Below, piece by piece: positions 369 to 50,713 of a stretch of DNA of 64,000 nt. Both the position numbers and the translations under genes were made by a program. The DNA comes from a virus: IMG/VR virus record IMGVR_UViG_3300029585_000037, positions 1 through 64,000 of that record. One strand, 5' to 3'. Every line of letters begins with the position of its first letter. Position 1 is the first letter of the stretch. The notes below the pieces were generated by a model. It was not told the origin of the DNA. It searched no databases and was given only the letters and a program-made list of their open reading frames with translations.

Positions 369-1583
369 ATGAAAGAGCAAATTATCAATAACTCTATTAT
401 GACGGAAACATTTTCAAAGTCATACCCAGTGATAAATAAATATATTGTAGAGAATGGAGATCATGTAGAAAGTAGAAATGGAGACACAAAAGAAATTTTA
501 AATTTCAAAACTGAAATACACAATCCATACAGAAGATGTGTTGGTAATAATGGAAGAGACATTAATGTATTCTTTTTATTAGCAGAAGCATTATGGATTT
601 TTAGAGGTCGTAAGGATGTTGATTTTCTGGTAAAGTTTAATAATCAGATGAAAGAATATTCGGATGACGGAGTTAATTTCCATGCTCCATATGGTTTTCG
701 TATGAGAAGATATGGTGTTAGTAGTTTTGATAATAGTAAACCTACTTCACCAGAAAATAATGGTCATGCACACCAGCAAATGATTGATGGGATAGATCAG
801 ATTTTATCTGCAATGATTATGCTTAAAGAAAATCCAGAAAGTAGAAGAGTTGTAATATCTATTTGGAATCCAGATTTAGATTTAGGTACTGTATCAAAGG
901 ACTTACCTTGTAATGATATGTTAATGTTGAAAGTAAGAGGTGGTAAATTACATTCTACAATAGCTAATAGAAGTAATGATTTGCATTGGGGTTTACCTAC
1001 AAATGTATTTCAGTTTAGTTTTGTTACTGAGATAATGTCTAATATAATGGGTATAGAATTAGGCACTCAAACTCATAATTCTCAAAGTCTTCATTTTTAT
1101 ATTGATAATCCGATAGCAATGAAGATGTATGAAAATATGAGCTTTACTAATTCAAAATTTGATGATCTGTATGATTATTCTAAAGAAATTAGGATTGATA
1201 TGAATTTTGATAAGGTTGATAAAAGAAACAGGCAAGATTTATCAAGTGATAGTATTGAAAGAAAACTTGCAATTGTAGATGATTTTATAGATAGAATTAT
1301 ATACAGTTTAGATAGAGGTGAAAAGATGCCCGCATCTGATTTAAAAGCCTTAAAGAACTTTTCAGAGTATTTATTCATAACTTATGAATTATTATGGAAT
1401 TATCTAAGATATAAATTTGGTACTACAAAAACTGATCAAGATAAAAAGAATGCTATTGAAAAATTAAATGTATTGTCAAATGAGTATGGTAATCCAGACA
1501 TAATTACTATGTGTAAGAATTTTTATGTTTCAAAAATGAAAGATAAGTCTGATTATCAAAATACTATTTTAGGTACTCTATAA
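369..1583 (+). CDS. Thymidylate-synthase-fold enzyme (ThyA / pyrimidine hydroxymethylase family), candidate dUMP hydroxymethylase
   Basis: By-eye match to ThyA motifs: ENPESRRVVISIWNP, catalytic Cys in DLPCNDML, NRSNDLHWGLPTNVFQF (Asn at the ThyA Asn177 position), SLHFY; ~130-aa extra C-terminal tail. Confidence 0.75.
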   Translation: MKEQIINNSIMTETFSKSYPVINKYIVENGDHVESRNGDTKEILNFKTEIHNPYRRCVGNNGRDINVFFLLAEALWIFRGRKDVDFLVKFNNQMKEYSDDGVNFHAPYGFRMRRYGVSSFDNSKPTSPENNGHAHQQMIDGIDQILSAMIMLKENPESRRVVISIWNPDLDLGTVSKDLPCNDMLMLKVRGGKLHSTIANRSNDLHWGLPTNVFQFSFVTEIMSNIMGIELGTQTHNSQSLHFYIDNPIAMKMYENMSFTNSKFDDLYDYSKEIRIDMNFDKVDKRNRQDLSSDSIERKLAIVDDFIDRIIYSLDRGEKMPASDLKALKNFSEYLFITYELLWNYLRYKFGTTKTDQDKKNAIEKLNVLSNEYGNPDIITMCKNFYVSKMKDKSDYQNTILGTL

Positions 1584-1584
1584 T

Positions 1585-4500: not shown

Positions 4501-5169
4501 GAACGTAAGGAAAATGGGCAATTTTATGACTTAGAAGAGTTCTTACAAAGAATACCTAAAAGACAAGTCAATAAAAGAGTTGTTGTTCACTTGATTTTAG
4601 CTGGAGCGTTTGATGAATTATGCATAGGTAATAATAATGACGTACGCAGAAGATTAGACATACTAAAAGAATATTTCCAACTAATTCGGGCTGATTTACC
4701 AGAAGAGTTTGAAGCTGAAGATTGTAAAAAAGCATTTTACTGGAAAATGAAGCAAAGAGAATTGACTGGATTTGCTGACTTATCATTTGATAGTTTATTA
4801 GCTAAAAACAAAAAGACAAAAAGGTATCTTAATATATATAAAACACCTCAAGAAATTTCTTTATTAGATTTACAATCTAAAGAAAAAATGCCTGTTTTAG
4901 TAGCTGGATTGGTAGTTAATGTAAAAATTAAAAACACTAAAAAAGGAGACAGGATGGCTAATATTACTATGGATAATAACAATAATACTTTCATGGTTAC
5001 GTTTTGGTCTCAAATGTTTGAAAAGAAAGGATTTGAGGAATATTTATCAGGGTTAAATAAAAGAGAAGTCGTAATAGCAATTAAAGCTCAAGTTTCCAAC
5101 TGGAAAGAGATGATTCAGATAACAAACACATACGATACTTCTCATACTAAAATTATAGAATTAACTTAA
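1585..5169 (+). CDS. dnaE: DNA polymerase III alpha subunit (DnaE-type replicative polymerase)
   Basis: 1194 aa; PHP-like FVNLGVHTGYELLNGS, GRGSAGGSLVAYLLNIIEIDP, LPDIDLDFE, NALYRPGP, GFNRSHAAAYS, C-terminal OB (VLVAGLVVNVK..KGDRMANITMD). Confidence 0.9.
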   Translation: MTKDFKNWCESNSIKFSKTKDGYWEIKGFGSFIFVDDKDGKLLDDTFLIMLSEDEQDIVEDQKVDYIVYKWGTRFFYTSTKETGKNEYNEIGVNLKLNDFKNIGKYEPIVEIDFVNLGVHTGYELLNGSCEAYQYADKTSYLGHDCLGLAEKNTLAGTIAFQTACLKKDIKPIIGYTVSVAYNYDPEIENQELFDLKFYAKNEKGWRNLLRMNKAVNVDNEGFLIKEDIESLSDGLICVLPMESYFHKFIYQKKFAVKEIKYFKRIFKKDLYCQLDLTEFVDDGIDIDRLKIIKKYMSSYYKMIKPVYISDAYYVDKIDSEVKSILNSIDRKANPKSSDQYLKTIDDIFDKNIGLFESNEDSLDIFLESIDNTVVIAKECNFQIDTGNHKLPKFEVKDPLELYYDLLAKGFEKKIVGKVPDDKLEEYYERLDKENNVIVNAGFIDYFLILWDVIEYAKANDILVGVGRGSAGGSLVAYLLNIIEIDPIEYDLLFERFLNETRVSGERAKAADALPDIDLDFEGRKRDEIKRYIEHKYGVDHVCSIGTFNRMKVKSIIKDFARVMGVSFQEANSITKKIDPFDKKVAKGLPYEDIFDWALKNKTLKNFVQKHIDLFELIKAPMNQQRSSSIHASAVIITPKEDNDGNPMTIYDWMPVRKIDGVLVSEWEGKYIDKAGFLKEDILGIAQLDKFRMTLELIKKNLNKDIDLNQVSTKHKKTFKTFQKGMNEDVFQFGTGGLKKYSIDVKPTEVEDLISMNALYRPGPMNSDAHNDFVRIRRGKKKAVFDIGMEKVTEKTFGLYVYQEQVMQAMVVGGMTLSEADQVRTYMKKFDDKSLQKFKKKFVKGYSKVVKKKAKNPKKYATEVWDKLYQFSSYGFNRSHAAAYSVMGYWSQWLKVNYPLEFWTASLNFVKRLEDFPNRISEMRKMTKIRVAPPDINKSDIYFTSDVETNNIYWSFEQIKQVGPASAAAILQERKENGQFYDLEEFLQRIPKRQVNKRVVVHLILAGAFDELCIGNNNDVRRRLDILKEYFQLIRADLPEEFEAEDCKKAFYWKMKQRELTGFADLSFDSLLAKNKKTKRYLNIYKTPQEISLLDLQSKEKMPVLVAGLVVNVKIKNTKKGDRMANITMDNNNNTFMVTFWSQMFEKKGFEEYLSGLNKREVVIAIKAQVSNWKEMIQITNTYDTSHTKIIELT

Positions 5170-5170
5170 T

Positions 5171-5794
5171 ATGAAAAACACATTTGATAATTTTCTTCAC
5201 GATAATGATTTTGACCAATTGAATAATATGGTTAGATGGAATGGTATGAACAGAATAAAAGATGAAACAGTAGCACATCATTCCTTTATAGTCTCTGTAT
5301 TTTCCAGAGTATTAGCTGAGGAAGTTTTTGTTGGTATTTTATTTCCAGATGTAAAGATAAAACTTGATATAGTTACTTATGCATTATTTCATGATTATGA
5401 TGAGATGTTTACTGGAGACGTTCTTCATAATTTAAAGTATAATCCATTTAATGGGCCAGAAATTAGAAATAACATAGATGAATATTTAGAGTATAAAATC
5501 AAAGATAAATTTAACAGTGGTTCTAAGACTGATAATATGTTCAAGAATACAATGTTAAAAGATTTTCCTAAATTTGTTTCAGAGTTAGTAAAGGTCGCAG
5601 ATTGGTTATCAATGTATTTTTATCTTTATAAAGAACAGGAATTAGGTAATACAGGAGTTTGTAAAACAAGACAATATTGTATAAAAGGTATAATAAATTC
5701 TGTTAATACTGTAATTGAATCATTAGAGAAACAGAATGATTATAAAATCAATTTAGATATTTTGAACGAAATTAAAACAATAAAATATGAGTAA
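5171..5794 (+). CDS. HD-domain phosphohydrolase, YfbR-like 5'-deoxynucleotidase
   Basis: RWNG..ETVAHHSFIVSVFSRVLAEE and ALFHDYDEMFTGD match the H..HD..D metal motif of YfbR-type HD nucleotidases. Confidence 0.65.
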   Translation: MKNTFDNFLHDNDFDQLNNMVRWNGMNRIKDETVAHHSFIVSVFSRVLAEEVFVGILFPDVKIKLDIVTYALFHDYDEMFTGDVLHNLKYNPFNGPEIRNNIDEYLEYKIKDKFNSGSKTDNMFKNTMLKDFPKFVSELVKVADWLSMYFYLYKEQELGNTGVCKTRQYCIKGIINSVNTVIESLEKQNDYKINLDILNEIKTIKYE

Positions 5795-6143
5795 AGTATG
5801 CTTTGATAAGGATTTAATGTCTCAAATAGAGAATTATAATGTGGAAGAAGTCTTAGAATTTCTTGATAAGTTACATTCAGTATCTCAAAAAATAACAAAA
5901 GAGAAAGATGAAGACTATGGAGGCAGTTGGCAAAAAGATGGATTGTTATCAGTACATCTAAATACTAAAAGAAAATGGGATAGGCTTCAAAATATATTTG
6001 AAAATGGTTTTAATGTTAATTTAGAAACAGAAACTGCTTTAGATACATTGATAGATTTGAGAAATTATGTGGGATTATATACATTTTTCTTGAGTAAGAA
6101 ATATCCAGAACAATTTCAGAAATTTTTAGAGCAAAATGGGTAA
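5787..6143 (+). CDS. DUF1599-like (nucleotide-modification-associated, MazG-like all-alpha) protein
   Basis: DEDYGGSWQKDGLLSVHLNTKRKWDRLQNI ... ALDTLIDLRNYVGLY resembles from memory the YG.SW...K..R / D...DL.NY pattern of DUF1599; overlaps upstream gene by 8 nt. Confidence 0.4.
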   Translation: MSKVCFDKDLMSQIENYNVEEVLEFLDKLHSVSQKITKEKDEDYGGSWQKDGLLSVHLNTKRKWDRLQNIFENGFNVNLETETALDTLIDLRNYVGLYTFFLSKKYPEQFQKFLEQNG

Positions 6144-6675
6144 AAGCAAATTAGTATTCAATCTTGGAGATAAGGTAGTAAAATTTACTGTTCAAGATTT
6201 TGATAAGAATGTAGAAATAGACAAGCTATTAAAGATTGATTATGGTAATCTTGTAGCCGAGTTAGTAACATTTCCAGTAGTTGTAAATAAATTAGGTTTA
6301 CTTGCTGCCGAAATGGACAATGAAGTTCAATTAGCTAAATTGAATTTATCTGTAACTGAAGCAAAATTAAAAGATAAAATACGTAAGCAATTAACATTTG
6401 AAGATGATAAGGGCAGACGTAAAACACCTACTATCGCAGAAGTAGATGATGCTTTAACAAGAAATAAATTATGGATAAAAAAGAAGACTGCTTACATTAC
6501 CATAATGAAAGAAAAAGAATACATGTATTCTATTTATGAGTCTGCTAAGGATAAGTCAAGAAAATTAGACAAACTTAGCTTAACTCTAAAAACTGGAGAC
6601 ATCGATACAGATATAATTCAAAGACAACTTAATAATGTCTATTTCAAGATAAAAGATGGATTCATTAAAGATTAA
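6136..6675 (+). CDS. hypothetical protein (coiled-coil; directly upstream of SSB/recombinase genes)
   Basis: 179-aa ORF, 8-nt overlap with upstream gene; no motif recognised. Confidence 0.55.
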   Translation: MGKSKLVFNLGDKVVKFTVQDFDKNVEIDKLLKIDYGNLVAELVTFPVVVNKLGLLAAEMDNEVQLAKLNLSVTEAKLKDKIRKQLTFEDDKGRRKTPTIAEVDDALTRNKLWIKKKTAYITIMKEKEYMYSIYESAKDKSRKLDKLSLTLKTGDIDTDIIQRQLNNVYFKIKDGFIKD

Positions 6676-7984: not shown

Positions 7985-9070
7985 ATGAGTATAATAGATA
8001 AAATTGTACAGAAATTTGATAATGAGGATATCATTAAATTTTCTGATAAGGATAATTTCAAAGAAATGAAATCTTGGTGTGGTACCAATGTTCCTCAGCT
8101 TGAATATAATTTAGGTACTCTTGGCTTACCAACAGGAATAATGGAAATTGCAGGTGTTTCTAAGTCTGGTAAAACCACTTTAGGACTTGAATCTATGGCT
8201 AACTTTCTAAGGCAAGACGAAAATGGTATAGCAGTAATTCTTTCATCTGAAAATAGAGATAATAAAGAGTATGCTGCTAAATTAGGAATAGATACTGAAA
8301 AAGTAATAATTCTTAAAATACGCTATGTTGAGGATATGTTTATGAAAGTAAAGAAAATGATTCAAGATGTAGAAGAGATTTTTGAGATTGAAAATCTTGG
8401 AGAACCAAAATTCTTTTTTCTATGGGATAGTTTAGGTGCTACATTATCTAAGGCTGAATTAGATACTATGGAGCATAATACAGCTGAAATGGAAAAGGCA
8501 ATGGCTAAAGGTAAGGCTATGTCTAAGTCAGCTACAAAACATGCTCAGATGGGTGCTTTTGCTAAACAAGCTAAGATGTTTAGTAAATTTTTATTAGGTG
8601 AAATGTATGACAAAACAATACATTTTATAATTCTTAACCACGTCTATAACAAGATGGATGGAAGAGGTGGAAAAAAATCTGGAGGTGGAGAATGGGTAGA
8701 GTATATGCCTACTATTAGACTAAGGATGGCAGTTGTAGGTCATGAAAAATTAGATGATGTGGAAGTTGCTCAATATTCTGAAATAAAAGTAGTCAAAAAT
8801 GATTTTGGATCAAGACGTAAAACAAAAGTAGAGATATTACTTGGAAAGGGATTTGTATTAAATGCTGAAGATATAGCATTTGCTGTAGAAGAGGGCATCA
8901 TAGAAAAAGTATCTGCATCTAAGTGGTCATTCATGAAAGGTAAGATGACTTGGAACTCCAAAAGAACATTCTATCAATTGTATTACGATAATAATAAGTA
9001 TTTACCTTTACTACATAAAAAGGTCACTAAAGCAAGACATGAACGTGTATTAGATGAAAGAGAGTCATAA
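7985..9070 (+). CDS. RecA/UvsX-family recombinase
   Basis: Walker A GVSKSGKTTLGLE, Walker B-like FFFLWDSLGA; start moved to Met 7985 because the listed 7907 start runs through the hairpin. Confidence 0.7.
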   Translation: MSIIDKIVQKFDNEDIIKFSDKDNFKEMKSWCGTNVPQLEYNLGTLGLPTGIMEIAGVSKSGKTTLGLESMANFLRQDENGIAVILSSENRDNKEYAAKLGIDTEKVIILKIRYVEDMFMKVKKMIQDVEEIFEIENLGEPKFFFLWDSLGATLSKAELDTMEHNTAEMEKAMAKGKAMSKSATKHAQMGAFAKQAKMFSKFLLGEMYDKTIHFIILNHVYNKMDGRGGKKSGGGEWVEYMPTIRLRMAVVGHEKLDDVEVAQYSEIKVVKNDFGSRRKTKVEILLGKGFVLNAEDIAFAVEEGIIEKVSASKWSFMKGKMTWNSKRTFYQLYYDNNKYLPLLHKKVTKARHERVLDERES

Positions 9071-16918: not shown

Positions 16919-18187
16919 ATGAAAATAGCAATCATTGGATTAGGTTATGTTGGTTTACCTTTAGCTGTAGAATTAGCTAAGAAACATCAAGTAATAGGTT
17001 ATGATTTAAGTCAATCAAGAGTGGATTCATTGAATGAATTTCAAGATGATACTAATGAGATAGAACTACAACAATTTATAGATGTATCTGAATCAATAGT
17101 ATTTACTACAGATGATGCAAAAATAGAGAATTGTGATACTTATATAATTACAGTGCCTACACCAGTAGATGAGAATAAATATCCAGATTTATCTGCATTA
17201 AGAATTTCAAGTAAATTAGTAGGTATGAGGATGAAAATAGGTAGTCTTGTAGTATATGAATCAACAGTATATCCTACAGCTACAGAAGATGTTTGTATTC
17301 CAATACTTGAGGAGTATTCAGGATTTACCTTAAATGAAGATTTTGGAGTAGGTTACAGTCCTGAACGTATAAACCCATCTGATAAAGTAAATACGCTATT
17401 AACTATAACAAAAGTAGTATCTGGCTCAAATTTATATTGGATGAATTGTACAAAAGAATTATATGAGTCAATAGGAATTACAACATATGGAGTATCTGAA
17501 TTAAAGATAGCTGAAGCATCTAAAATAGTAGAGAATATACAAAGAGATGTTAATATAGGCTTAATGAACGAATTGTCTGTGATATTTGACCGTATGGATA
17601 TAGATACTGAAGAAGTATTACAAGCAGCAGGAACAAAGTGGAATTTTCTTAATTTTAGACCAGGATTAGTAGGTGGACATTGTATAGGTGTTGATCCATA
17701 TTATCTTCTGAGAAAATCAGAAGAGTTAGGATATAGTCCAGGCATAATAAGACACGCCAGAATTACCAACGAAAATATGGCTAATTTCGTACTTAAAAAA
17801 GCATTAAGGAGATACCGAGAATTATATCCAGATAAAAAGCCTAACATATTATTAATGGGTATTACTTTCAAAGAAAATTGTCCTGATCTTAGAAATAGTA
17901 AGGTATTTGATATGATGAGGATTTTAGATGATTTTCATTATGATTATGATTTACATGACTCACAGTATGGTTCTAAATTCTTAGATAAAAGATTTGTTGA
18001 TTCAAGCACTTCTGTAGGAATATCTAAAAAGTATGATTTAGTATTTGTAAATGTTATGCATAATGATTACAAATACTTTGGATATGCTGATATAGTTTCT
18101 GATAATCATCTAATTGTAGATGTTCAAAATAAATTAGATAAGGCTACATTAAAAGAAGAGAAAAATCTGAACATAATTGGCTTATAA
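16919..18187 (+). CDS. Nucleotide-sugar 6-dehydrogenase (UDP-glucose/GDP-mannose dehydrogenase family; TviB/WbpO/Cap5O-like)
   Basis: N-terminal Rossmann MKIAIIGLGYVGLPLAVELA, catalytic GGHCIGVDPYYL, ITFKENCPDLRNSK. Confidence 0.85.
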   Translation: MKIAIIGLGYVGLPLAVELAKKHQVIGYDLSQSRVDSLNEFQDDTNEIELQQFIDVSESIVFTTDDAKIENCDTYIITVPTPVDENKYPDLSALRISSKLVGMRMKIGSLVVYESTVYPTATEDVCIPILEEYSGFTLNEDFGVGYSPERINPSDKVNTLLTITKVVSGSNLYWMNCTKELYESIGITTYGVSELKIAEASKIVENIQRDVNIGLMNELSVIFDRMDIDTEEVLQAAGTKWNFLNFRPGLVGGHCIGVDPYYLLRKSEELGYSPGIIRHARITNENMANFVLKKALRRYRELYPDKKPNILLMGITFKENCPDLRNSKVFDMMRILDDFHYDYDLHDSQYGSKFLDKRFVDSSTSVGISKKYDLVFVNVMHNDYKYFGYADIVSDNHLIVDVQNKLDKATLKEEKNLNIIGL

Positions 18188-29827: not shown

Positions 29828-30337
29828 ATGAGATTATATAAGGTCATAAATAGTGAGAAATTCAAAGATGCTAAAGAGTTTCTTGAGTTAATATACAAAC
29901 AGAAAAAAGAAAACTTAGATTTTATTCGAGAAAATATAACACCTTTTGATTGGCAAATGTATAGTGGATGGAGTGGAGGTTTTTACATGTTAGAAACCTT
30001 TAATGGATTCATTCCTAAACCTAAATTAGACAAAATTCCATCAGGTTGGAAATTTGATAAGGATAATGAAGAATTGTTAGTACCTAACAAAAGAACTAAA
30101 TTAGGTAAGAAGATTTATGAAGATTTAAACAATTTACAGAATTGGAGTTTTCATAAAATTTTTGATGTTCTAAATATACATGTAGAAACTATTGGTAGAT
30201 TCACAATTCCAGGATTATATTTATCAAAAGATGAAAAAGAAGTTTATCTCAAAGTTGATTTTAAAGTAGAACTTGATGAAAAAGATTTTGAAGAAGTTAC
30301 AGTAACATATGTAAATAAAATGTTAGGTATAAAATGA
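29828..30337 (+). CDS. hypothetical protein
   Basis: 169-aa ORF. Confidence 0.55.
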   Translation: MRLYKVINSEKFKDAKEFLELIYKQKKENLDFIRENITPFDWQMYSGWSGGFYMLETFNGFIPKPKLDKIPSGWKFDKDNEELLVPNKRTKLGKKIYEDLNNLQNWSFHKIFDVLNIHVETIGRFTIPGLYLSKDEKEVYLKVDFKVELDEKDFEEVTVTYVNKMLGIK

Positions 30338-30939
30338 TCAAGGATAGAACATTTATGGATATAGCGAGGTTAATCGCAAATGAAAGTAAAGCTAAGAAAC
30401 GTAAAGTTGGAGCTATCATAGTCAAAGACAATAACATCTTAGCAGTAGGCTACAATGGAACTCCATCAGGACATGATAATACGTGTGAAGATGAAGAAGA
30501 GTATATGGGGAGAGATTACAAAGCTCATACAAGATTAGTAACCAGACCAGAAGTCCTACATGCTGAAAGTAACGCTATATCTAAATGTGCAAGATCAGTT
30601 AATAGTAGCGAGAGTGCAACGATTTACACGACTACTGCACCATGTTTAGAGTGTGCTAAGCTCATTATCCAGTCAGGTATAGTAGAAGTTGTATATGAAG
30701 ATGAATACGGCAAACCTGATGGTGTTAATTTACTATTAAAAAATCATACAAAAGTTAGAAAATTAAAAAGTAATGAAGATATATTGATTAATGATTACTT
30801 CATTTACAATAAAAGTCATAATTCAAGAAATCCTGAATGGGAATTACATAGATGTGAACAAATAGATGTAATACAAGGAGTTGGAAAATTCATAAATGGT
30901 AAATATCATCATATTTGGTGTTTTAAAATTAAAAGATAA
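30334..30939 (+). CDS. dCMP deaminase (ComEB/CDA zinc deaminase) with ~50-aa C-terminal extension
   Basis: VGAIIVKDNNILAVGYNG, HAESNAI (H-A-E), PCLECAKLI (PCxxC). Confidence 0.85.
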   Translation: MIKDRTFMDIARLIANESKAKKRKVGAIIVKDNNILAVGYNGTPSGHDNTCEDEEEYMGRDYKAHTRLVTRPEVLHAESNAISKCARSVNSSESATIYTTTAPCLECAKLIIQSGIVEVVYEDEYGKPDGVNLLLKNHTKVRKLKSNEDILINDYFIYNKSHNSRNPEWELHRCEQIDVIQGVGKFINGKYHHIWCFKIKR

Positions 30940-35260: not shown

Positions 35261-35701
35261 ATGTCACAAAAAGTAAGAGTAGTAGCTGAGAATGGAGTTC
35301 AGTTACCTAAGTATGAAACAGAAGCATCTGCTGGTATGGATGTGAGAGCAAATATCACCGAGCCAGTAGTATTAGAGTCGATGGAAAGAGCACTCATTAA
35401 AACTGGTTTGTCTATTGAATTACCAGTAGGTATGGAGTGTCAAGTAAGACCAAGAAGTGGTTTAGCCTATAAGCAAGGAATTACTGTATTAAATGCTCCA
35501 GGCACTATTGATGCAGATTATAGAGGTGAAATTGGTGTAATTCTTGTTAACCTATCTAATGAGAATGTAACTATACACCCTAATGACAGAATAGCTCAAT
35601 TAGTATTCGCTAAGCATGAAAGAATACATTGGATATCAGCTACAGAGTTATCTGAAACAGAACGTGGCTCTGGTGGTTTTGGTTCTACTGGTAAGTCATA
35701 A
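35261..35701 (+). CDS. dut: dUTP diphosphatase (trimeric dUTPase)
   Basis: [48 protein letters not shown]: all five dUTPase motifs. Confidence 0.95.
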
Positions 35702-36474: not shown

Positions 36475-36546
36475 TCTACATTAGCTCAGTAGGTAGAGCA
36501 ACAGAGACTAATCTGTAGGTCACTGGTTCGAGTCCAGTATGTAGAT
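36475..36546 (+). tRNA. tRNA-like gene with canonical acceptor, D and T arms but a 6-nt anticodon loop (GACUAA); identity undetermined
   Basis: TCTACAT-TA-GCTC-AGTAGGTA-GAGC-A-ACAGA-GACTAA-TCTGT-AGGTC-ACTGG-TTCGAGT-CCAGT-ATGTAGA-T; 72 nt; no encoded CCA. Confidence 0.6.
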
Positions 36547-36569: not shown

Positions 36570-36915
36570 GGGGGTGCTTGGTTTTGACAGGTACGAAATT
36601 TAAAACAATTAGTCAAGGTATATGGTTGTGAATACCTTTAAAATTCCATCTAAATTTTAAATGGCAAAGTTTTAACAATGCCTTCTATGAATGCTCCGAT
36701 GAGAGCAGCTGCCTAATAGGTTCATAGACGAGTGACGACTACTTTGGAACAGAAAGTCGTAAGTTGTGCAGTTTGTCTATTCTGCCTATAAAGATAGTCT
36801 GGTGGAGTCATTCAGTTGACCTTATCTTGGACAGATGTAAAATGTATCCTATGACTATGAATAAATTGTTTTGAGTGGACTATTTTGGACGGCAGTTCGA
36901 CTCTGCCCACCTCCA
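36570..36915 (+). ncRNA. ssrA: tmRNA (ssrA), full length, with tag reading frame at 36663-36719
   Basis: 5' GGGGGTGCTTGGTTTTGACAGG and 3' GGACGGCAGTTCGACTCTGCCCACCTCCA match the conserved tmRNA termini; 7-bp acceptor stem with G3-U; T-arm GGCAG/TTCGACT/CTGCC; frame ...AAT GCT CCG ATG AGA GCA GCT GCC TAA TAG. Confidence 0.85.
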
Positions 36916-37136
36916 CGAAAATCCAACCGATAGGTAAGGTATTACTCAATACCGAACTGACTGCGGATAGGGTCAATAGGAGTTGCTTTTGGGTGAAGTG
37001 ACACGGAGTTTGTTAGACTTATATAACATGATGCATCGCTGCGCACCGTATTTGACGCTGCCAAAAAATCATGGGAGATTAATGGCTTGTCTTTCAAACT
37101 CCAACCCACCTATTGTTAACACCCAAAATTCATATT

Positions 37137-40406: not shown

Positions 40407-40979
40407 ATGAAAGTATATAATTTTCCATCTAAATTTCTATTTCAAACAAAAGTAGAAAATCATAAGGAACTTAAAAATCAACTTTTTGATAAGATAATAG
40501 ATTTATCAAAAAAGAATGAAAAAGAATATAAACAAAATCATGATACTTGGGATTGTAAAGTATTAACAAGTTTCTTTGATCCAGACTCAGCTGTTATATT
40601 TAATGAAAATCCTGATTTGTATGATGCTATTTGGAAAGCGTTTGATGAAATGTTAGGTAATGTAATTTTAAATTCTAAAGTGCCAAAAAGTAAGCTAAAT
40701 AGAATATGGTTTAATCTTTACAAAAAAGGATATAACCAAGAGGTACACCAGCATTGTGGTAGTGATTTTTCAGGAGTTTATATATTACATTGCACAGAGC
40801 CTAACAAGACAGTATTCTATTCAAATGAAAATCATAGATTGCTAAATAAGACATTAAAAACAGAAGATGTAGAAGAGGGTACTATATTATTATTTCCATC
40901 TCATCTATCTCATTATGTAAATGAAATACAAGATGAATTAAGAGTTACAGTAGCTTTTAATATCACTTGCGAAGTTTAA
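40407..40979 (+). CDS. 2OG-Fe(II) oxygenase family protein (TIGR02466/2OG-FeII_Oxy_5-like)
   Basis: VHQHCGSDFSGVYILH and LLFPSHLSHYV...RVTVAFNI follow the H.H...SGVYY / FPS.L.H / R.S..FN pattern. Confidence 0.6.
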   Translation: MKVYNFPSKFLFQTKVENHKELKNQLFDKIIDLSKKNEKEYKQNHDTWDCKVLTSFFDPDSAVIFNENPDLYDAIWKAFDEMLGNVILNSKVPKSKLNRIWFNLYKKGYNQEVHQHCGSDFSGVYILHCTEPNKTVFYSNENHRLLNKTLKTEDVEEGTILLFPSHLSHYVNEIQDELRVTVAFNITCEV

Positions 40980-44410: not shown

Positions 44411-45250
44411 ATGAGTAAATTATTCTTAGAAACAGAAGACTTCAATGGAAGACTTAATAAAAGTATCTTCACTAACATTGAAAAAGGAATGAGTCAAAAA
44501 GAATTTGACAATATGTATCCATCTGCTAATTTCGATGTATTTGAAAAATCTGTAGTTGAGGGATATATTTTAGATACCTATAAAGCTACTGGTGGAGAGA
44601 TTGTTAAAGGTAGTTTTAATGATACTCCAGAAATAGCTAAAGCACTTGCTCATATGAAAGAGCAAATATCAGGATTATCACCTGTTAACATTTCAGATAA
44701 TGGTGTTAAAAAAGAAGTTTTTGTAATGTTGAAAGCAAAATCTGAAGAGGGTGATGATAAATTACAAAAGGGTAAGATAGCTAACAATTTAATGTATAGC
44801 GATGCTGGAGCAATAGAGTTTGAAAAAACAGGTGAAGAGATTAAAACGCAAGTATCAGCCTTAAAACTTATTGAAAAGAATAAGTGTAAGGAATTAGCTG
44901 ATAAGTTAAGCGAAATGCAGACTAAATTTAAAGAAAATCCTACTGAGGATTGTTATAAGTATGGTTTAGCTGCTGATATAGAATGTCCTTACAAATGTTT
45001 TAATTGGAACTTGACTTACTTTGATGCTGGAGAGAACATGAACAGTTCTTTTGAAAATTCAGATGGTAGTTATTCTAACAGAGTAGCTTCAGAAGAGGAT
45101 GCTCAATTCCATAGAGAATGGAATAACACTGTAGAAAAATGGATTGATTGTCATGCTGAGATAAAAGCAATAGAGGTTTATGAAAATAACCTTAAAGATG
45201 ATAAGACATATAAACTAACTGCTAATCAAATGTTATTCTTTGGGTTTTAA
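44411..45250 (+). CDS. hypothetical protein
   Basis: 279-aa ORF, terminator downstream. Confidence 0.55.
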   Translation: MSKLFLETEDFNGRLNKSIFTNIEKGMSQKEFDNMYPSANFDVFEKSVVEGYILDTYKATGGEIVKGSFNDTPEIAKALAHMKEQISGLSPVNISDNGVKKEVFVMLKAKSEEGDDKLQKGKIANNLMYSDAGAIEFEKTGEEIKTQVSALKLIEKNKCKELADKLSEMQTKFKENPTEDCYKYGLAADIECPYKCFNWNLTYFDAGENMNSSFENSDGSYSNRVASEEDAQFHREWNNTVEKWIDCHAEIKAIEVYENNLKDDKTYKLTANQMLFFGF

Positions 45251-46138: not shown

Positions 46139-47155
46139 ATGGCATACGAGCGCAAGAATTGGTATCATCTTCTACCAAGTGATAAAAAGGAATTAGATAA
46201 GAAAAATCTAAAATTGTTTTTCAATTTAATGATTGAAAGACAAGATATTTGGTATAAAAGATTTTTATTAGGACAACCTGCTCCATGGACTAAAAATAAA
46301 TTCTTCAAAAATCACAAGTTTACAAATGTTTATAGAGAATTAGACCGTAATTCTCAGTGGCTTATACAAAATGTAATTCTAAAAGAAAAAGATAAAAGAA
46401 ATCTTGTATGGAAAATACTTTTATACAGGATTTTCAACAATCCAGAATTATTTATTTGGATATCATTCCAAGAAACTTCATTTAATAGCTATTTTCCAGA
46501 CTTTAAGGAATATGATAGAGATGAATTAGCTAATCTAATAATAGAATATAGAGAATTGGGTAAAAAGCCATTTACATCAGCTTATTTCATCAATCCTAAT
46601 TGTAGAGGTATGACTAGAACTGAACATTACGCTAAGAATGTAGTGTTTGATTTATACAATTCTGTAGAAGATGTATTGCAAATAATGGAAAATTCTAATG
46701 ATCCAGAAGATTTAATACAAAGACTTGAAAAGTGCAGAGCAGTGGCGAGTTTTATATCACATGAGTTCTACCAAGATTTTACTTATCCAGAAATTTATAC
46801 AGGAAAGTCTTTAATGAACTTTGATCAAGATGATTATACGAATGTGGGAGATGGCGCAGCACTTGGAATACGTTTGATATTTCCATCACTTGTAGGTAAA
46901 AAACAAAAAGAAGCAATTTACATTTTACGTGATTATGGTAATGATTATCTTGAGTCACATGGCTTTAAATTTCTGGTATGGAATATTGATAAGCAAAAGT
47001 ATGAGGTGTCTAATAAAGGTAGTATAACTTTACACCAAGTGGAGATGTGGTTGTGTGAGTTCGGCAAGTATTGGAAAATGAAAGTTGGGCTGGGGAAACA
47101 ACGTGGAAAATTCATACCGAGAACCATCGCCACACGTCAACCTCGAAACATGTAA
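46139..47155 (+). CDS. aGPT-Pplase-like protein (alpha-glutamyl/putrescinyl thymine pyrophosphorylase family; DNA base hypermodification)
   Basis: N-terminal block IERQDIWYKRFLLGQPAPWTKNKFFKNHKFTNVYRELDRNSQWL matches the remembered family signature ER..I...R..G.P.PWT.D.I....+FTNVYRE.DR.T.W. Confidence 0.55.
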   Translation: MAYERKNWYHLLPSDKKELDKKNLKLFFNLMIERQDIWYKRFLLGQPAPWTKNKFFKNHKFTNVYRELDRNSQWLIQNVILKEKDKRNLVWKILLYRIFNNPELFIWISFQETSFNSYFPDFKEYDRDELANLIIEYRELGKKPFTSAYFINPNCRGMTRTEHYAKNVVFDLYNSVEDVLQIMENSNDPEDLIQRLEKCRAVASFISHEFYQDFTYPEIYTGKSLMNFDQDDYTNVGDGAALGIRLIFPSLVGKKQKEAIYILRDYGNDYLESHGFKFLVWNIDKQKYEVSNKGSITLHQVEMWLCEFGKYWKMKVGLGKQRGKFIPRTIATRQPRNM

Positions 47156-47199: not shown

Positions 47200-47535
47200 A
47201 TGAATGCTGATACAAGAATTTTCGGAGTTATAAACAAAGAAGATGAAACAATTTCATGTGAGATCAAAGGACTTGCAGTGAAAGAAAAGGAGATAGTAGT
47301 GTCTCATGTTCAATTTTCTGAAGGATGGTTAGAACAAAAAGCTGCAGAAGACAATACAAGTAGTGTGTTGGAAACAATTTCTTTTCATCCAGAACAGGAA
47401 TTAACACAAACAGAAATTAAAGAATTTTTTGAAACTGAAGATGACAAAGAAAACTTTAATTGGGAAGTTAAGAATTTAATAACAGGTGAAGTTTTATTAG
47501 AAGCAACTGAAGCTGAACCAGAACAAGGATTATAA
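47200..47535 (+). CDS. acidic hypothetical protein
   Basis: 111-aa ORF. Confidence 0.5.
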   Translation: MNADTRIFGVINKEDETISCEIKGLAVKEKEIVVSHVQFSEGWLEQKAAEDNTSSVLETISFHPEQELTQTEIKEFFETEDDKENFNWEVKNLITGEVLLEATEAEPEQGL

Positions 47536-47537
47536 TC

Positions 47538-49097
47538 ATGTCAGAAATTAATCAGAATATTCAGAAAAAAGAATTTGAGAGACGTTTGCACATTCTTAAA
47601 GGCTTTACAAACATTGATGAAATAGCTAATGTGCACATTCAACAGCTTGAAAAGGCAGTAGGTAGCGAGAATATTTATGAATATTCTGGTTTACAAAAAC
47701 TGACTCAAGATGTATTAGCTAAAGGAGACAAGGCTGAAATTTTTAAGGCTAAAAAATTCATCAATGAACTCAATCCAGTTAATGTAATTGGAGAAGATGG
47801 TTTACCTACAACTGTATTCCTTGAAAAAGGACATATGGATTTTTCTAATTCACGCACCTATGCAGACAACGCTGAAAATCGTAAGAAAAACAGAGTAGGT
47901 CAGCAGTATGGTGGGCGTAATGTAGAAGATAAGAATGTAGATAATTCTACTAAAGATAATGATCCACCTAAAGAACAAAATGAGGGTGCTAAGGATTATG
48001 ATAAAAGTCCTGAAGACTGGGTTACTGAGACCTCTTCTGAAGATTTAAAGAAGTTCGTAGATACTGCAGATGACAGTCAGATAGAACTCATAGAATTAGC
48101 TGAGGAAGAGTTAATGAACAGAGGTGAGTACGGAACTGATCCAGATAATGATCCAGGCAATCCTGAAAATCAAAATTCTGAAACAAATCAAGAACAGGAA
48201 GATGAGGCTGGAAGATATGATGATGAATTATCTTTAGATGAGATGAATAGGATGTTTTGGGATTTACCAGATGATCAAAGAGAACAAATAATTGGCGACA
48301 GTATCAGACATAATGTTTCTCCAATTACGGCTATGAAATTTCAAAATATGCATGTTCGTAATAATGAAGAAACTCACGCTAAAATAGATGCTGCACAAGC
48401 CGCATTAGACGAGTTAAAAGGAGCAACTGGCCATCCTGATACTAATTCTGAGACAGTTTCTGAAGATGAAGTTAAGGCTTGGGTGAGAGGTGAAGCAGAA
48501 CTTGACAAGGAACAATTAGAACAATTTTTATTCGATAATCCTAATTTTGCACAAGCTGATATACTTAAAAATGAATTAGCTAATTGGGATGAAGAAGATG
48601 TTGAAGATATGGATAATGATTCAGAAAGTTCTAAAATAGCTGATCAAGTTGAAAAAGAAACTTATACAGATGATGGCAGTCAATATAAAAAAGATGTTCA
48701 AAAAGATGAACAATCTTACAAAGATCAAGTTGATTCAGATGAAGCACAAGAAATAAATGATAAAATAGATGATTTTACTGATGATATAATTGATTCTTTG
48801 AATTCTGATGATATAGACTCAATTATAAATTCTATAGAACATTATCAAGAGTCATATCTTGGAACAATGAACAAATTATTATTACCTTTAAGTGAAGAAC
48901 AAAAATCTAAGGTAAATGAAATTTGGAATGAATATTCAGGAAATGAAGGTAGATTTGAAGATTATGAAAAAGGTTTCTTTGATTCAGAAGATAAGGAACA
49001 AGCTGAACAATTAGCATCTAAGATAGGTGGAGAAATAGAAGAACAAGGTGGTTTAATATATGTTTACGACAAAGATGGTAACATATATAATGGATAA
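47538..49097 (+). CDS. large highly acidic protein upstream of portal (possible scaffold/ejected protein)
   Basis: 519 aa, D/E/N/Q-rich; contains RTYADNAENRKKNRVGQQYGG (nt 47856-47915). Confidence 0.6.
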   Translation: MSEINQNIQKKEFERRLHILKGFTNIDEIANVHIQQLEKAVGSENIYEYSGLQKLTQDVLAKGDKAEIFKAKKFINELNPVNVIGEDGLPTTVFLEKGHMDFSNSRTYADNAENRKKNRVGQQYGGRNVEDKNVDNSTKDNDPPKEQNEGAKDYDKSPEDWVTETSSEDLKKFVDTADDSQIELIELAEEELMNRGEYGTDPDNDPGNPENQNSETNQEQEDEAGRYDDELSLDEMNRMFWDLPDDQREQIIGDSIRHNVSPITAMKFQNMHVRNNEETHAKIDAAQAALDELKGATGHPDTNSETVSEDEVKAWVRGEAELDKEQLEQFLFDNPNFAQADILKNELANWDEEDVEDMDNDSESSKIADQVEKETYTDDGSQYKKDVQKDEQSYKDQVDSDEAQEINDKIDDFTDDIIDSLNSDDIDSIINSIEHYQESYLGTMNKLLLPLSEEQKSKVNEIWNEYSGNEGRFEDYEKGFFDSEDKEQAEQLASKIGGEIEEQGGLIYVYDKDGNIYNG

Positions 49098-49114: not shown

Positions 49115-50713
49115 ATGTCTAAGATAGCTAAACAACTTGAAGCAACTGAGAAACTTCAACAGAAACTTATGGTAAAACAAGGTATTCTGATGGAGAAGGC
49201 ATTGTCTTCAAGTTCACCTACAGACATTCTAAGAGCTCAAAAGACATTAGAGTTCATAGAACAAAGGAAACAGAGTCAAAAGAAATCATTTATTGTTGAT
49301 CCTTTAGATTTTCAATCTAATTTTGGTTATAAGGATAAACCATTTTCTATGAGTTATAATACTCTTAGAGCAATGTCTAAAACACCTATAATCAACGCTA
49401 TCATAAAGACACGTAAAAATCAGATAGCTGATTTTGCAGAGCCTCAAGCTGATAAGTATTCTACTGGATTTGTAATTCGTAAGAAACGTAAACTTGGAAA
49501 AGAAGAGGATGATGAGACAACTCCAGAAGAGTGGGCTAAAATAGAGTATATACAAGACTTTATTTTGAATTGCGGTCGCAATCAATCTTGGGAGGGTGAT
49601 GATTTTGAAACCTTTATACGTAAGGTAGTAGAAGATAGCTTAACATATGATCAAATGACTTTTGAAGTTGTTAGAGACCATTCTGGAGATTTATTTGAAT
49701 TCTTTGCTACAGATGCATCTACTTTTAGAGTAGCTGATAGTTATGATGATGACGAATATGATAAGGATGAGCGTGAAGAGGTTATGGGATATTACCCATC
49801 TTATGTTCAGGTTTATAATAATGAGATAAAATCTGAATTTTATCCTTGGGAATTATGCTTTGGAGTTAGAAATCCATCTACTAATTTATATAATGTGGGT
49901 TATGGCGTATCTGAGCTGGAAGAACTGGTTGCTACAGTCACTTCTATGCTTTGGGCTGAGGATTATAATAAAAAGTTCTTTTCACAAGGTAGTGCACCAA
50001 AAGGATTATTGAAAGTTAAGGCTGGTAATGTTAGTGAAAAACAACTTTCTGCTTTCAGACAAGAATGGCAGGCAATGTTAACAGGTGTGCAGAACTCTTG
50101 GAAAACACCGATAGTAGATGCAGACATAGATTGGATAGACCTGCAAAAGAACAATAGAGATATGGAGTACACTCAATGGATGGACTATCTTATCAAAATT
50201 TCTTGTGCAATCTATTCTATGGATCCAAATGAGATAGGGTTCAATATTTCTAACTCATCTACAGGTGGGTCAACATTTGAGTCTAATAATGAACAAAAAT
50301 TAAAGCATTCAAAAGACAAAGGATTATATCCTATATTAAAGTTTATACAAAGAAAAATTAACAAATACATAGTAGGTCAGATTGATCCAGATTATGAATT
50401 TGTATTTGCAGGACTAAATGGAATGACTCTTGAAGAAGAGTTAGATGTAGAAGTTAAAAAGCTATCTAATTTCCAAACCTTAAATGAGACACGTAAGAAA
50501 TTTGGTATGAGTGAAATAGAGGGTGGAGACATCGTACTTAATCCTACATTTACTCAAAATCAAATGATGCAACAGCAACAAGAAATGGGAATGGGTCAAA
50601 ATCCATTTATGATAGATGATGAGTCTGAAGATGATAACAATAATCCTTTTTTACAGGATGACGATGAAGATGGAAATAATCCATTCTTGAAATCGTTTCT
50701 AAATAACTTATAA
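49115..50713 (+). CDS. Portal protein
   Basis: 532 aa; N-terminal FSMSYNTLRAMSKTPIINAIIKTRKNQIADFA resembles the Phage_portal start; acidic/Q-rich C-terminus. Confidence 0.6.
   Translation: MSKIAKQLEATEKLQQKLMVKQGILMEKALSSSSPTDILRAQKTLEFIEQRKQSQKKSFIVDPLDFQSNFGYKDKPFSMSYNTLRAMSKTPIINAIIKTRKNQIADFAEPQADKYSTGFVIRKKRKLGKEEDDETTPEEWAKIEYIQDFILNCGRNQSWEGDDFETFIRKVVEDSLTYDQMTFEVVRDHSGDLFEFFATDASTFRVADSYDDDEYDKDEREEVMGYYPSYVQVYNNEIKSEFYPWELCFGVRNPSTNLYNVGYGVSELEELVATVTSMLWAEDYNKKFFSQGSAPKGLLKVKAGNVSEKQLSAFRQEWQAMLTGVQNSWKTPIVDADIDWIDLQKNNRDMEYTQWMDYLIKISCAIYSMDPNEIGFNISNSSTGGSTFESNNEQKLKHSKDKGLYPILKFIQRKINKYIVGQIDPDYEFVFAGLNGMTLEEELDVEVKKLSNFQTLNETRKKFGMSEIEGGDIVLNPTFTQNQMMQQQQEMGMGQNPFMIDDESEDDNNNPFLQDDDEDGNNPFLKSFLNNL

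Follow-up and report, generated by a model that had tools for sequence, protein, structure and literature searches.

A standalone PF18723 gene, formerly aGPT-Pplase clade 1, in a phage genome with a dUMP hydroxymethylase-type ThyA

Hypermodification of thymidine in phages follows a scheme in which a dUMP hydroxymethylase leads to DNA containing 5-hydroxymethyldeoxyuridine (5-hmdU), on which a kinase, an amino acid:DNA transferase (ADDT) and tailoring enzymes then act in turn. Clade 1 and clade 2 of the aGPT-Pplase proteins were defined by Iyer et al. (2013), as cited by later papers, and as far as these citations go, the function of clade 1 (the second "PPlase" paralog, now PF18723) was predicted in 2013 and its role has stayed unassigned since. 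Group transfer was later assigned to the clade 2 proteins M6 gp51, ViI gp247, PhiW-14 gp109 and PaMx11 gp46, while the clade 1 protein M6 gp55 could be omitted from the in vitro N-alpha-GlyT reconstitution and SP10 gp186 remained an active kinase without its C-terminal PF18723 domain (Lee 2021; PMC8989533). In the same study the kinase product was a single phosphate, 5-PmdU, with no pyrophosphate formed (PMC8989533), and the structural papers that came afterwards deal exclusively with clade 2. Here we describe a clade 1 gene from the first 64,000 nucleotides of the IMG/VR virus record IMGVR_UViG_3300029585_000037, hereafter the window, in a phage that encodes a hydroxymethylase-type member of the ThyA superfamily and no detectable kinase or ADDT. 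The best explanation as a whole, which in our judgement stands evenly balanced between right and wrong, is that a Cys-dependent PF18723 enzyme acts on 5-hmdU in DNA and does not strictly need a P-loop kinase.

The closest described counterparts are M6 gp55, the C-terminal part of SP10 gp186 (gp186C) and PhiW-14 gp72. They share with the window protein the family, the length, the all-helical fold, a helix-hairpin-helix (HhH) hairpin and the same invariant residues including C306-E307-x-x-K310, at only 22–29% identity, and M6 gp55-type systems, like the window gene, share their genome with a dUMP hydroxymethylase of the SP8/M6 type. However, in these systems the kinase is fused or adjacent and the ThyA-like gene lies within a few kb, whereas the window gene has no kinase fused or adjacent to it, the ThyA-like gene is 44.6 kb off (the first-pass annotation had said about 45 kb) and PF18723, a core gene of the lineage, precedes the portal gene. 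HTVC023P-type pelagiphages pair a thymidylate synthase (TS) with "aG/PT-PPlase1", sometimes with a 5′-deoxynucleotidase beside it (Buchholz et al., 2022; PMC9599517). These uncultured viral genomes resemble the window in combining a hydroxymethylase-type TS and PF18723 with no kinase mentioned, but the two genes lie close together near PolA in podoviruses of ~60 kb, whereas the window pair is 45 kb apart in a genome of ~94 kb whose replicase is Pol III alpha and whose host is probably one of the Bacteroidota. SPO1 and SP8 have the same type of dUMP hydroxymethylase and the dCMP deaminase and dUTPase/nucleotidase functions of the window phage, but they keep 5-hmdU in virion DNA and were not among the PF18723 tblastn matches; the window phage has PF18723 in addition.

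Family, fold and conserved residues of the PF18723 protein

The open reading frame (ORF) called by the first-pass annotation is exact in its ends and strand (Table 1). That annotation placed it in the aGPT-Pplase family and proposed a profile search as a check, and the outcome supports the family under its former name, clade 1, but not the proven transferase family PF18724 (clade 2). PF18723 HMUDK_hel was matched at E = 3.9e-46 and 158.1 bits (cut-off 25), over residues 24–316 and profile positions 4–276 of 281, and no other Pfam family was matched at E <= 1, PF18724 ADDT, PF18748 and HhH-GPD included. The aGPT-Pplase name is gone from current Pfam, where PF18723 is now "HMUDK_hel, 5-hmdU DNA kinase helical domain". 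Orthologs of M6 gp55 (99.4% identical) are labelled in GenBank as "aGPT-Pplase1 domain-containing protein" and as "5-hmdU DNA kinase helical domain-containing protein", one record each, and because they bear both labels PF18723 can be equated with the old clade 1. In a scan of reference proteins, M6 gp55 and residues 313–598 of SP10 gp186 fell into PF18723, M6 gp51 into PF18724 ADDT (E = 1.4e-46), and M6 gp54 and the N-terminus of SP10 gp186 into PF18748 HMUDK_HMUD1, the P-loop kinase. In PHROGs the window protein matched phrog_2396, of unknown function (E = 1.9e-41), and phrog_800 only partially; a NCBIfam scan gave no match, a PDB sequence search none at E <= 10, and Walker A is absent from the protein.

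A role as small terminase was considered and rejected, as this label on M6 gp54, SP10 gp186 and phrog_800 has spread by mis-annotation of kinase and kinase-fusion proteins. In GenBank/RefSeq the mislabelling is widespread, many ViI-like phages included: the 5-hmdU DNA kinase and its fusion proteins appear as "terminase small subunit" and sometimes as "baseplate hub", and the former error has been carried into PHROGs.

The AlphaFold2 model, built with 35 homologs (pLDDT 88.5, pTM 0.86), is all-helical except for one beta-hairpin. Foldseek against BFVD placed SP10 gp186 on top (E = 3.6e-14, TMq 0.78), next the PF18723 homologs of phiRSL1, a Nodularia phage and PhiW-14, and after the PF18723 proteins those of the ADDT family (E = 8.6e-4 to 0.06, TM 0.39–0.49). 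The top match in the PDB, a weak one, was PaMx11 gp46/PUGT (8z2n; E = 0.064, prob 0.93), followed by HhH glycosylases and DUF2419 (MjOgg at E = 0.25 and TM 0.33–0.47, AlkA weakly at E = 2.4). Judged from the predicted model, ADDT is the nearest other fold to PF18723. The gene is almost certainly a standalone member of PF18723, all-helical, HhH-containing, DNA-glycosylase-like and a distant structural cousin of ADDT; it adds a member to a known family without characterised function, in an informative kinase-less context.

Residue conservation was followed in an alignment of 38 family sequences, including M6 gp55, SP10 gp186C and the YungSlug homolog, and in a wider comparison of 22 diverse PF18723 proteins, some with and some without a kinase in their context. 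The N-terminal signature block recognised at first pass is present: R34, R41, P49, W50, F61, N63, R66, L68 and D69 are invariant among the 38 sequences, and five of these nine (R34, F61, N63, R66 and D69) are still invariant among the 22, where R41, P49, W50 and L68 vary. The glycines G237, G239 and G243 of the HhH-like motif are invariant in both sets, residues 238–247 forming a helix in the model. R97, A148, Y149, F205, C306, E307 and K310 complete the list of positions that are invariant in the kinase-associated and kinase-less proteins of the wider set, and the window protein has every family-invariant residue (R34, N63, R66, D69, R97, Y149, the three glycines and C306-E307-x-x-K310). The family is also under strong purifying selection, as 61 columns do not vary among 35 sequences of 46–87% identity to the window protein. 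The residues kept in both contexts suggest an enzyme with a putative Cys-Glu-Lys catalytic centre, and its chemistry appears, from the residues retained, to be the same in both contexts. Because identical catalytic residues are conserved in lineages with and without kinase, the core activity of PF18723 is probably kinase-independent, that is, not strictly dependent on prior phosphorylation by a P-loop kinase.

Three further positions, E209, N235 and E302, change together, to Q, to A or L, and to Q, and both variants are found with and without kinases among the 22 sequences. This co-variation suggests a coupled site, possibly metal-binding, that splits the family into two subtypes.

The ADDT proteins (M6 gp51, ViI gp247, PhiW-14 gp109, PaMx11 gp46/PUGT with structures 8z2m and 8z2n, and YuA Pplase2) have an HhH-containing helical architecture like that of the window protein. 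In PaMx11 gp46 the active-site metal is bound by Glu243 and Thr244, and Cys247 is the nucleophile that attacks C6 of the base (PMC11472151). These residues lie in a C-terminal helix with the motif E-x-x-L-C, and the spacing of Glu243 and Cys247 in E-T-I-L-C equals that of E302 and C306 in E302-M303-W-L-C306 of the window protein. The two differ in that the window protein has no PF18724 match and that its Cys is followed by an invariant Glu, where ADDT has Lys.

An alternative is that PF18723 is not an enzyme but a reader, a non-catalytic protein that binds 5-hmdU DNA, e.g., to mark or select DNA for packaging or to make other enzymes sequence-specific. A role of the latter kind is what the Pfam name "kinase helical domain" implies, the protein carries an HhH DNA-binding motif, it keeps its position between the genes for the large terminase subunit (TerL) and the portal across the lineage, the M6 and SP10 reactions ran without it in vitro, and hypermodification in M6 and ViI depends on sequence context (Lee 2021; PMC8989533). 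We nevertheless consider a reader unlikely: an invariant Cys-Glu-x-x-Lys, and with it about ten Arg, Asn, Asp and Tyr residues that stay unchanged in very divergent sequences, look like an active-site signature rather than a binding surface, PF18723 is conserved where no kinase exists to assist, and a separate candidate for the small terminase subunit is found in a 248-aa ORF upstream of TerL.

Kinase and ADDT genes in the genome and its relatives

The window matches the JGI contig 3300026613 Ga0265381_100144 (93,934 bp), and the mapping of coordinates implies that the ends of this contig overlap by ~99 bp (window 8831–8929). This makes the window circularly permuted and the genome complete, ~93.8 kb in length and circular or terminally redundant in form. 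The genome searches covered 82.4 kb of this (~88%), and the negative results below refer to this part.

Neither partner of the classic pathway was found. Searching all ORFs by phmmer with M6 gp54, M6 gp51 and SP10 gp186 returned only noise, a batched Pfam scan over 83 ORFs that lacked annotation gave neither PF18748 nor PF18724, and broadened local profiles for kinase and ADDT found nothing even at E <= 1. ORFs with a Walker A motif encode DnaB, a RecA-like ATPase, TerL, UvrD, the dUTPase-like protein (with the motif near its C-terminus) and a 492-aa protein of the structural region; Pfam matched these candidates to RecA, TerL and AAA_30 only, and no small ORF has an N-terminal Walker A. ADDT, pyridoxal phosphate-dependent and radical-SAM tailoring genes are likewise missing. 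As a positive control, ThyA-linked loci of other phage groups yielded the kinase in 11, ADDT in 3 and PF18723 in 14 cases, so the same tools can detect these genes. The first-pass annotation saw no P-loop kinase adjacent to the gene; phmmer and the Pfam scan bear this out and extend it to the searched genome, and the genome-wide search for a 5-hmdU DNA kinase that it recommended came back empty. With neither kinase nor ADDT detectable, the known hypermodification pathway cannot run in the window phage; the classic route from kinase to transferase is not encoded in the searched genome, and the post-replicative thymidine hypermodification that was read from the gene at first pass is not borne out.

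The same absence is seen in the lineage, for which 83 related viral loci (1.4 Mb) were compared. PF18723 is present in 83/83 and its position between TerL and portal is conserved, with the portal just downstream in 76–77 loci and DUF7168 upstream in 67, yet no kinase lies beside it in 81 of the 83. At least 16 contigs, from both locus lists, carry PF18723 together with a ThyA-like gene. Each of the 120 best homologs is a PF18723 protein that stands alone, 325–386 aa long and in many cases on a contig of 90–120 kb. A library-wide profile search gave 3,837 representatives at E <= 1e-3, and only about four of the best 150 are long enough for an N-terminal fusion.

A single cassette of the classic type occurs among the 83 loci, in locus L078 (IMGVR_UViG_3300033066_000822, positions 1311–6313), where a P-loop kinase with a weak PF18748 match, an ADDT (PF18724, 26.9 bits vs a cut-off of 26.2), an FkbM methyltransferase, PF18723 and the portal follow in this order; the slot beside PF18723 therefore takes up modification genes. 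What the cassette suggests for the L078 phage itself is a thymidine hypermodification that is methylated and possibly new. In other relatives the slot between PF18723 and the portal holds small proteins, other genes or, in 20 loci, an FkbM-type methyltransferase (~348 aa, C-terminal PF05050 at E = 1.8e-9) directly downstream of PF18723, with no kinase or ADDT there; examples are L028 (11113–12159), L030, L031 and L047, and the window has no counterpart.

Outside the lineage, 14 uncultured loci of other groups have PF18723 within ~4.5 kb of a ThyA-like gene, mostly adjoining it. Seven of them also have an HMUDK-type kinase and one an APS-kinase-like P-loop protein, and in the remaining six there is no kinase or Walker-A ORF within 4 kb. 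From this distribution, PF18723 is tied more tightly to the hydroxymethylase than to kinase or ADDT. Since in the window lineage it is a strictly conserved core gene accompanied by the hydroxymethylase, with kinase and ADDT almost always absent, its function is not solely to assist the kinase.

In locus L157 (1123–2414), PF18723 is directly followed by an APS-kinase-like P-loop ORF (PF01583, E = 2.7e-12) with no HMUDK-type kinase, which may be a non-orthologous kinase replacement. In Bacillus phage YungSlug (6348–6878 of locus L007), a Tad2-like (Thoeris anti-defence 2) protein is encoded between the 5-hmdU DNA kinase and PF18723 genes.

These data bear on the first-pass reading, in which a kinase activates 5-hmdU in DNA and the window protein exchanges the activating group for a possibly new donor. 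Such an activity was originally predicted for the PF18723 family and is still annotated in some records, its Cys/Glu motif resembles that of ADDT, and L078 shows that the lineage can host kinase and ADDT at the PF18723 locus. SP10 makes alpha-glutamylthymidine although no second PPlase paralog is listed for it (Lee 2018), and the broad ADDT profile matched nothing in the 12.8-kb SP10 stretch that was scanned; clade 1 might therefore be the transferase in SP10. Against this, the kinase is missing from the searched genome and from beside the gene in nearly all relatives, and all experimentally proven transferases are PF18724 and none PF18723. M6 gp55 was not needed in vitro and the intermediate is a monophosphate, so the displacement of a pyrophosphate by this enzyme, as pictured at first pass, is not supported: the proven displacing enzyme is clade 2/ADDT. 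Nor is there evidence of any donor transfer that would give substance to a new donor group. We regard a transferase role for the window protein as improbable, more so than the reader.

Another possibility is that a kinase is hidden, either in the ~10 kb outside the searched sequence or as a non-homologous ORF such as the 279-aa neighbour, and that PF18723 works here as in M6, SP10 and Lucky3. PF18723 is always beside a kinase in the five cultured phages, the APS-kinase-like partner in L157 means that replacement of the kinase partner does occur, L048 has a divergent AAA_18 P-loop ORF directly after TerL, and many ORFs of the window are without any annotation. We think a hidden kinase has about as slim a chance as a reader. 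No small ORF in the searched 82.4 kb has an N-terminal Walker A, the L078 and L048 kinases used as queries match nothing in the window genome, and the conserved neighbours show neither a Pfam or PHROG match nor a nucleotide-binding motif. In relatives, moreover, the first ~6.5 kb of the region equivalent to the uncovered part is a tail module with no kinase match.

5-hmdU synthesis and a possible reaction

The link to 5-hmdU DNA biology drawn at first pass is sound: PF18723 is a family of such phages, and the genome has a ThyA of the dUMP hydroxymethylase type. This protein matches the M6 hydroxymethylase gp58 (phmmer, E = 6e-38), and its best match in a cultured phage is that of Bacillus phage SP8 (38% identity, E = 5e-43), whereas T4-type td and dCMP hydroxymethylases come at ~1e-6. 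SP8 is a classic phage in which T is fully replaced by 5-hmdU. The catalytic Cys181, R201-S-x-D204 and Asn212 are kept, and an NRSNDLHWG block and a long C-terminal extension are common to the window protein and the SP8, SP10, M6 and YungSlug enzymes. Along with it the genome encodes an HD/YfbR-like phosphohydrolase as candidate 5′-deoxynucleotidase (an enzyme also annotated in Pam3), a dCMP deaminase, a dUTPase/dCTP-deaminase-like protein and a class II-like ribonucleotide reductase, a set that makes up the pre-replicative toolkit of 5-hmdU phages (Lee 2021; PMC8989533). The phage is thus shown to encode what is needed for synthesis of 5-hydroxymethyl-dUMP and for suppression of dTTP.

One could still argue that the ThyA-like protein is an ordinary thymidylate synthase, the DNA unmodified and PF18723 a relic or of unrelated function, given that 5-hmdU is read here from genes and not from chemistry and that tblastn aligns known enzymes to no more than the first ~60% of the ThyA-like protein. 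This is very improbable, the least probable of the alternatives: the protein resembles the SP8, SP10 and M6 hydroxymethylases far more than it does td/ThyA and has the C-terminal extension of these hydroxymethylases, PF18723 is under the strong purifying selection described above, and it co-occurs with this type of ThyA on the contigs counted above.

For a Cys-dependent enzyme acting on 5-hmdU in DNA, the following course can be imagined. DNA would be replicated with 5-hmdU in place of T, and the PF18723 protein would bind it through the HhH hairpin and flip the base out. Cys306, with Glu307/Lys310 and the E209/N235/E302 triad, would then attack C6 of the pyrimidine, the chemistry shown for Cys247 of ADDT, and this attack would activate the C5 hydroxymethyl carbon. 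Possible products would be thymine, an adduct or unchanged 5-hmdU. A more specific version, which we put forward tentatively and which is more probable than any single alternative but well short of even, is that PF18723 is kinase-independent, with Cys306 attacking C6 to convert unphosphorylated 5-hmdU to thymine or to an undescribed base; PF18723 would be the conserved core, and the kinase and ADDT cassette an optional add-on as in L078.

Several observations weigh against a kinase-independent enzyme. PF18723 is fused or adjacent to a kinase in 5/5 cultured phages (M6, SP10, YungSlug, Pam3 and Lucky3), which argues for dependence on phosphorylation. ADDT is absent from the complete Lucky3 genome. 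The literature on clade 1 assigns activity to no member, and the dispensability of M6 gp55 in vitro and the activity of the SP10 kinase without its PF18723 domain would fit a non-catalytic or accessory role. The likeness to ADDT is also limited: the fold resemblance in the PDB is weak (TM ~0.4), the position of the metal-binding Thr of ADDT is Met in the window protein, and E302 is not family-invariant, being E or Q. When the PF18723 profile was aligned by hhalign with a 30-sequence ADDT profile, the sole aligned segment was the catalytic motif, E302/C306 against E243/C247, and the alignment is not significant (E = 0.19, probability <1%). Finally, ~10 kb of the genome lies outside the searched sequence, a non-homologous activating enzyme is possible among the many unannotated ORFs, and 5-hmdU in the DNA of the window phage is deduced from gene content. 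A match of the PF18723 profile to the single M6 gp51 sequence was rejected as spurious.

Neighbouring genes and biological meaning

The features of the window are collected in Table 1. The window has ~30% GC and essentially every gene on the + strand. No Shine-Dalgarno sequence was found upstream of the PF18723 gene, and scans for promoters and terminators gave no signal above chance.

Table 1. Coordinates of the PF18723 gene, its motifs and other features in the window
Feature	Position	Strand	Details
PF18723 (HMUDK_hel, formerly aGPT-Pplase clade 1) gene	46139..47155	+	ATG to stop, 338 aa, standalone, no P-loop
N-terminal signature block	46229..46357	+	aa 31-73: MIERQDIWYKRF..PWT..KFTNVYRELDRNSQ
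Helix-hairpin-helix-like G-x-G-x-x-x-G motif	46838..46876	+	aa 234-246, TNVGDGAALGIRL
Putative catalytic helix	47030..47071	+	aa 298-311, LHQVEMWLCEFGKY: E302, C306, E307, K310
ThyA-superfamily protein, phage dUMP hydroxymethylase type	369..1583	+	404 aa, PF00303
Pol III alpha-type polymerase	1585-5169	+	PHP + DNA_pol3_alpha + HHH_6; between ThyA-like and HD genes
HD/YfbR-like phosphohydrolase, candidate 5′-deoxynucleotidase	5171..5794	+	PF12917 YfbR-like, PF13023 HD_3; two genes downstream of ThyA-like
UDP-glucose/GDP-mannose 6-dehydrogenase	16919-18187	+	three Pfam domains; among replication genes
dCMP deaminase	30334..30939	+	PF00383, E = 1e-25
dUTPase/dCTP-deaminase-like protein	35261..35701	+	PF00692, E = 2.2e-31; phmmer to dUTPase/DCD genes of relatives, E = 1e-46
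tRNA	36475-36546	+	RF00005, 57 bits; ARAGORN "tRNA-???" (anticodon undetermined)
tmRNA, full-length	36570-36918	+	RF00023, 67.5 bits, E = 3.8e-24; directly after tRNA; missed by ARAGORN
2OG-Fe(II) oxygenase	40407-40979	+	PF13759; directly after TerL
Conserved unannotated neighbour	44411..45250	+	279 aa; orthologs ~1.1 kb upstream of PF18723 in 75/83 loci
Variable hotspot between PF18723 and portal	47200..49097	+	acidic 111-aa + acidic 519-aa proteins, D/E/N-rich
Portal protein (synteny anchor)	49115..50713	+	PF04860

The local setting is as the first-pass annotation described it, with small or unannotated ORFs upstream and acidic proteins downstream. The 279-aa neighbour has no Pfam or PHROG match and no nucleotide-binding motif, and PHROGs gave no matches for the ten unannotated window proteins that were scanned, this one included. 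The acidic proteins of the hotspot are common to the closest relatives only and have no Pfam or PHROG match. TerL is closest to that of Bacteroides thetaiotaomicron phages (~36% identity), and the lineage is a large one of uncultured phages, with contigs of ~85–124 kb and probably Bacteroidota hosts. A metagenome scan also turned up a 21.7-kb relative of the window genome, 83% identical.

Elsewhere in the window, the replicase is of the Pol III alpha type, where M6, SP10, SP8 and the pelagiphages have PolA-type polymerases, and the 2-oxoglutarate (2OG)-Fe(II) oxygenase is not of the TET/JBP type. A 6-dehydrogenase for UDP-glucose/GDP-mannose is encoded, and the searches of the window genome gave no convincing glycosyltransferase; a weak Glyco_transf_5 match of the Pfam batch scan (E = 0.003) was untraceable in ten re-scanned ORFs and was taken as noise. 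The relative L008 carries TAGT (PF20691), BubE and radical SAM/SPASM genes, and none of these has a counterpart in the window genome. The tmRNA is an unusual gene for a phage to encode.

For annotation, it follows that a match to PF18723 or "aGPT-Pplase1" alone is insufficient to infer hypermodified thymidine. For the family, this lineage offers a clean natural system in which the function of PF18723 may be found, having the ThyA-like protein and PF18723 and nothing else of the pathway. One candidate is the step, long without an assigned enzyme, in which 5-hmdU in DNA becomes thymine. 5-hmdU is absent from the virion DNA of SP10, PhiW-14, M6 and ViI (Lee 2021; PMC8989533), and if the kinase-independent reaction is true, a thymine product would fill the step from 5-hmdU to T that takes place at the polymer level in these phages.

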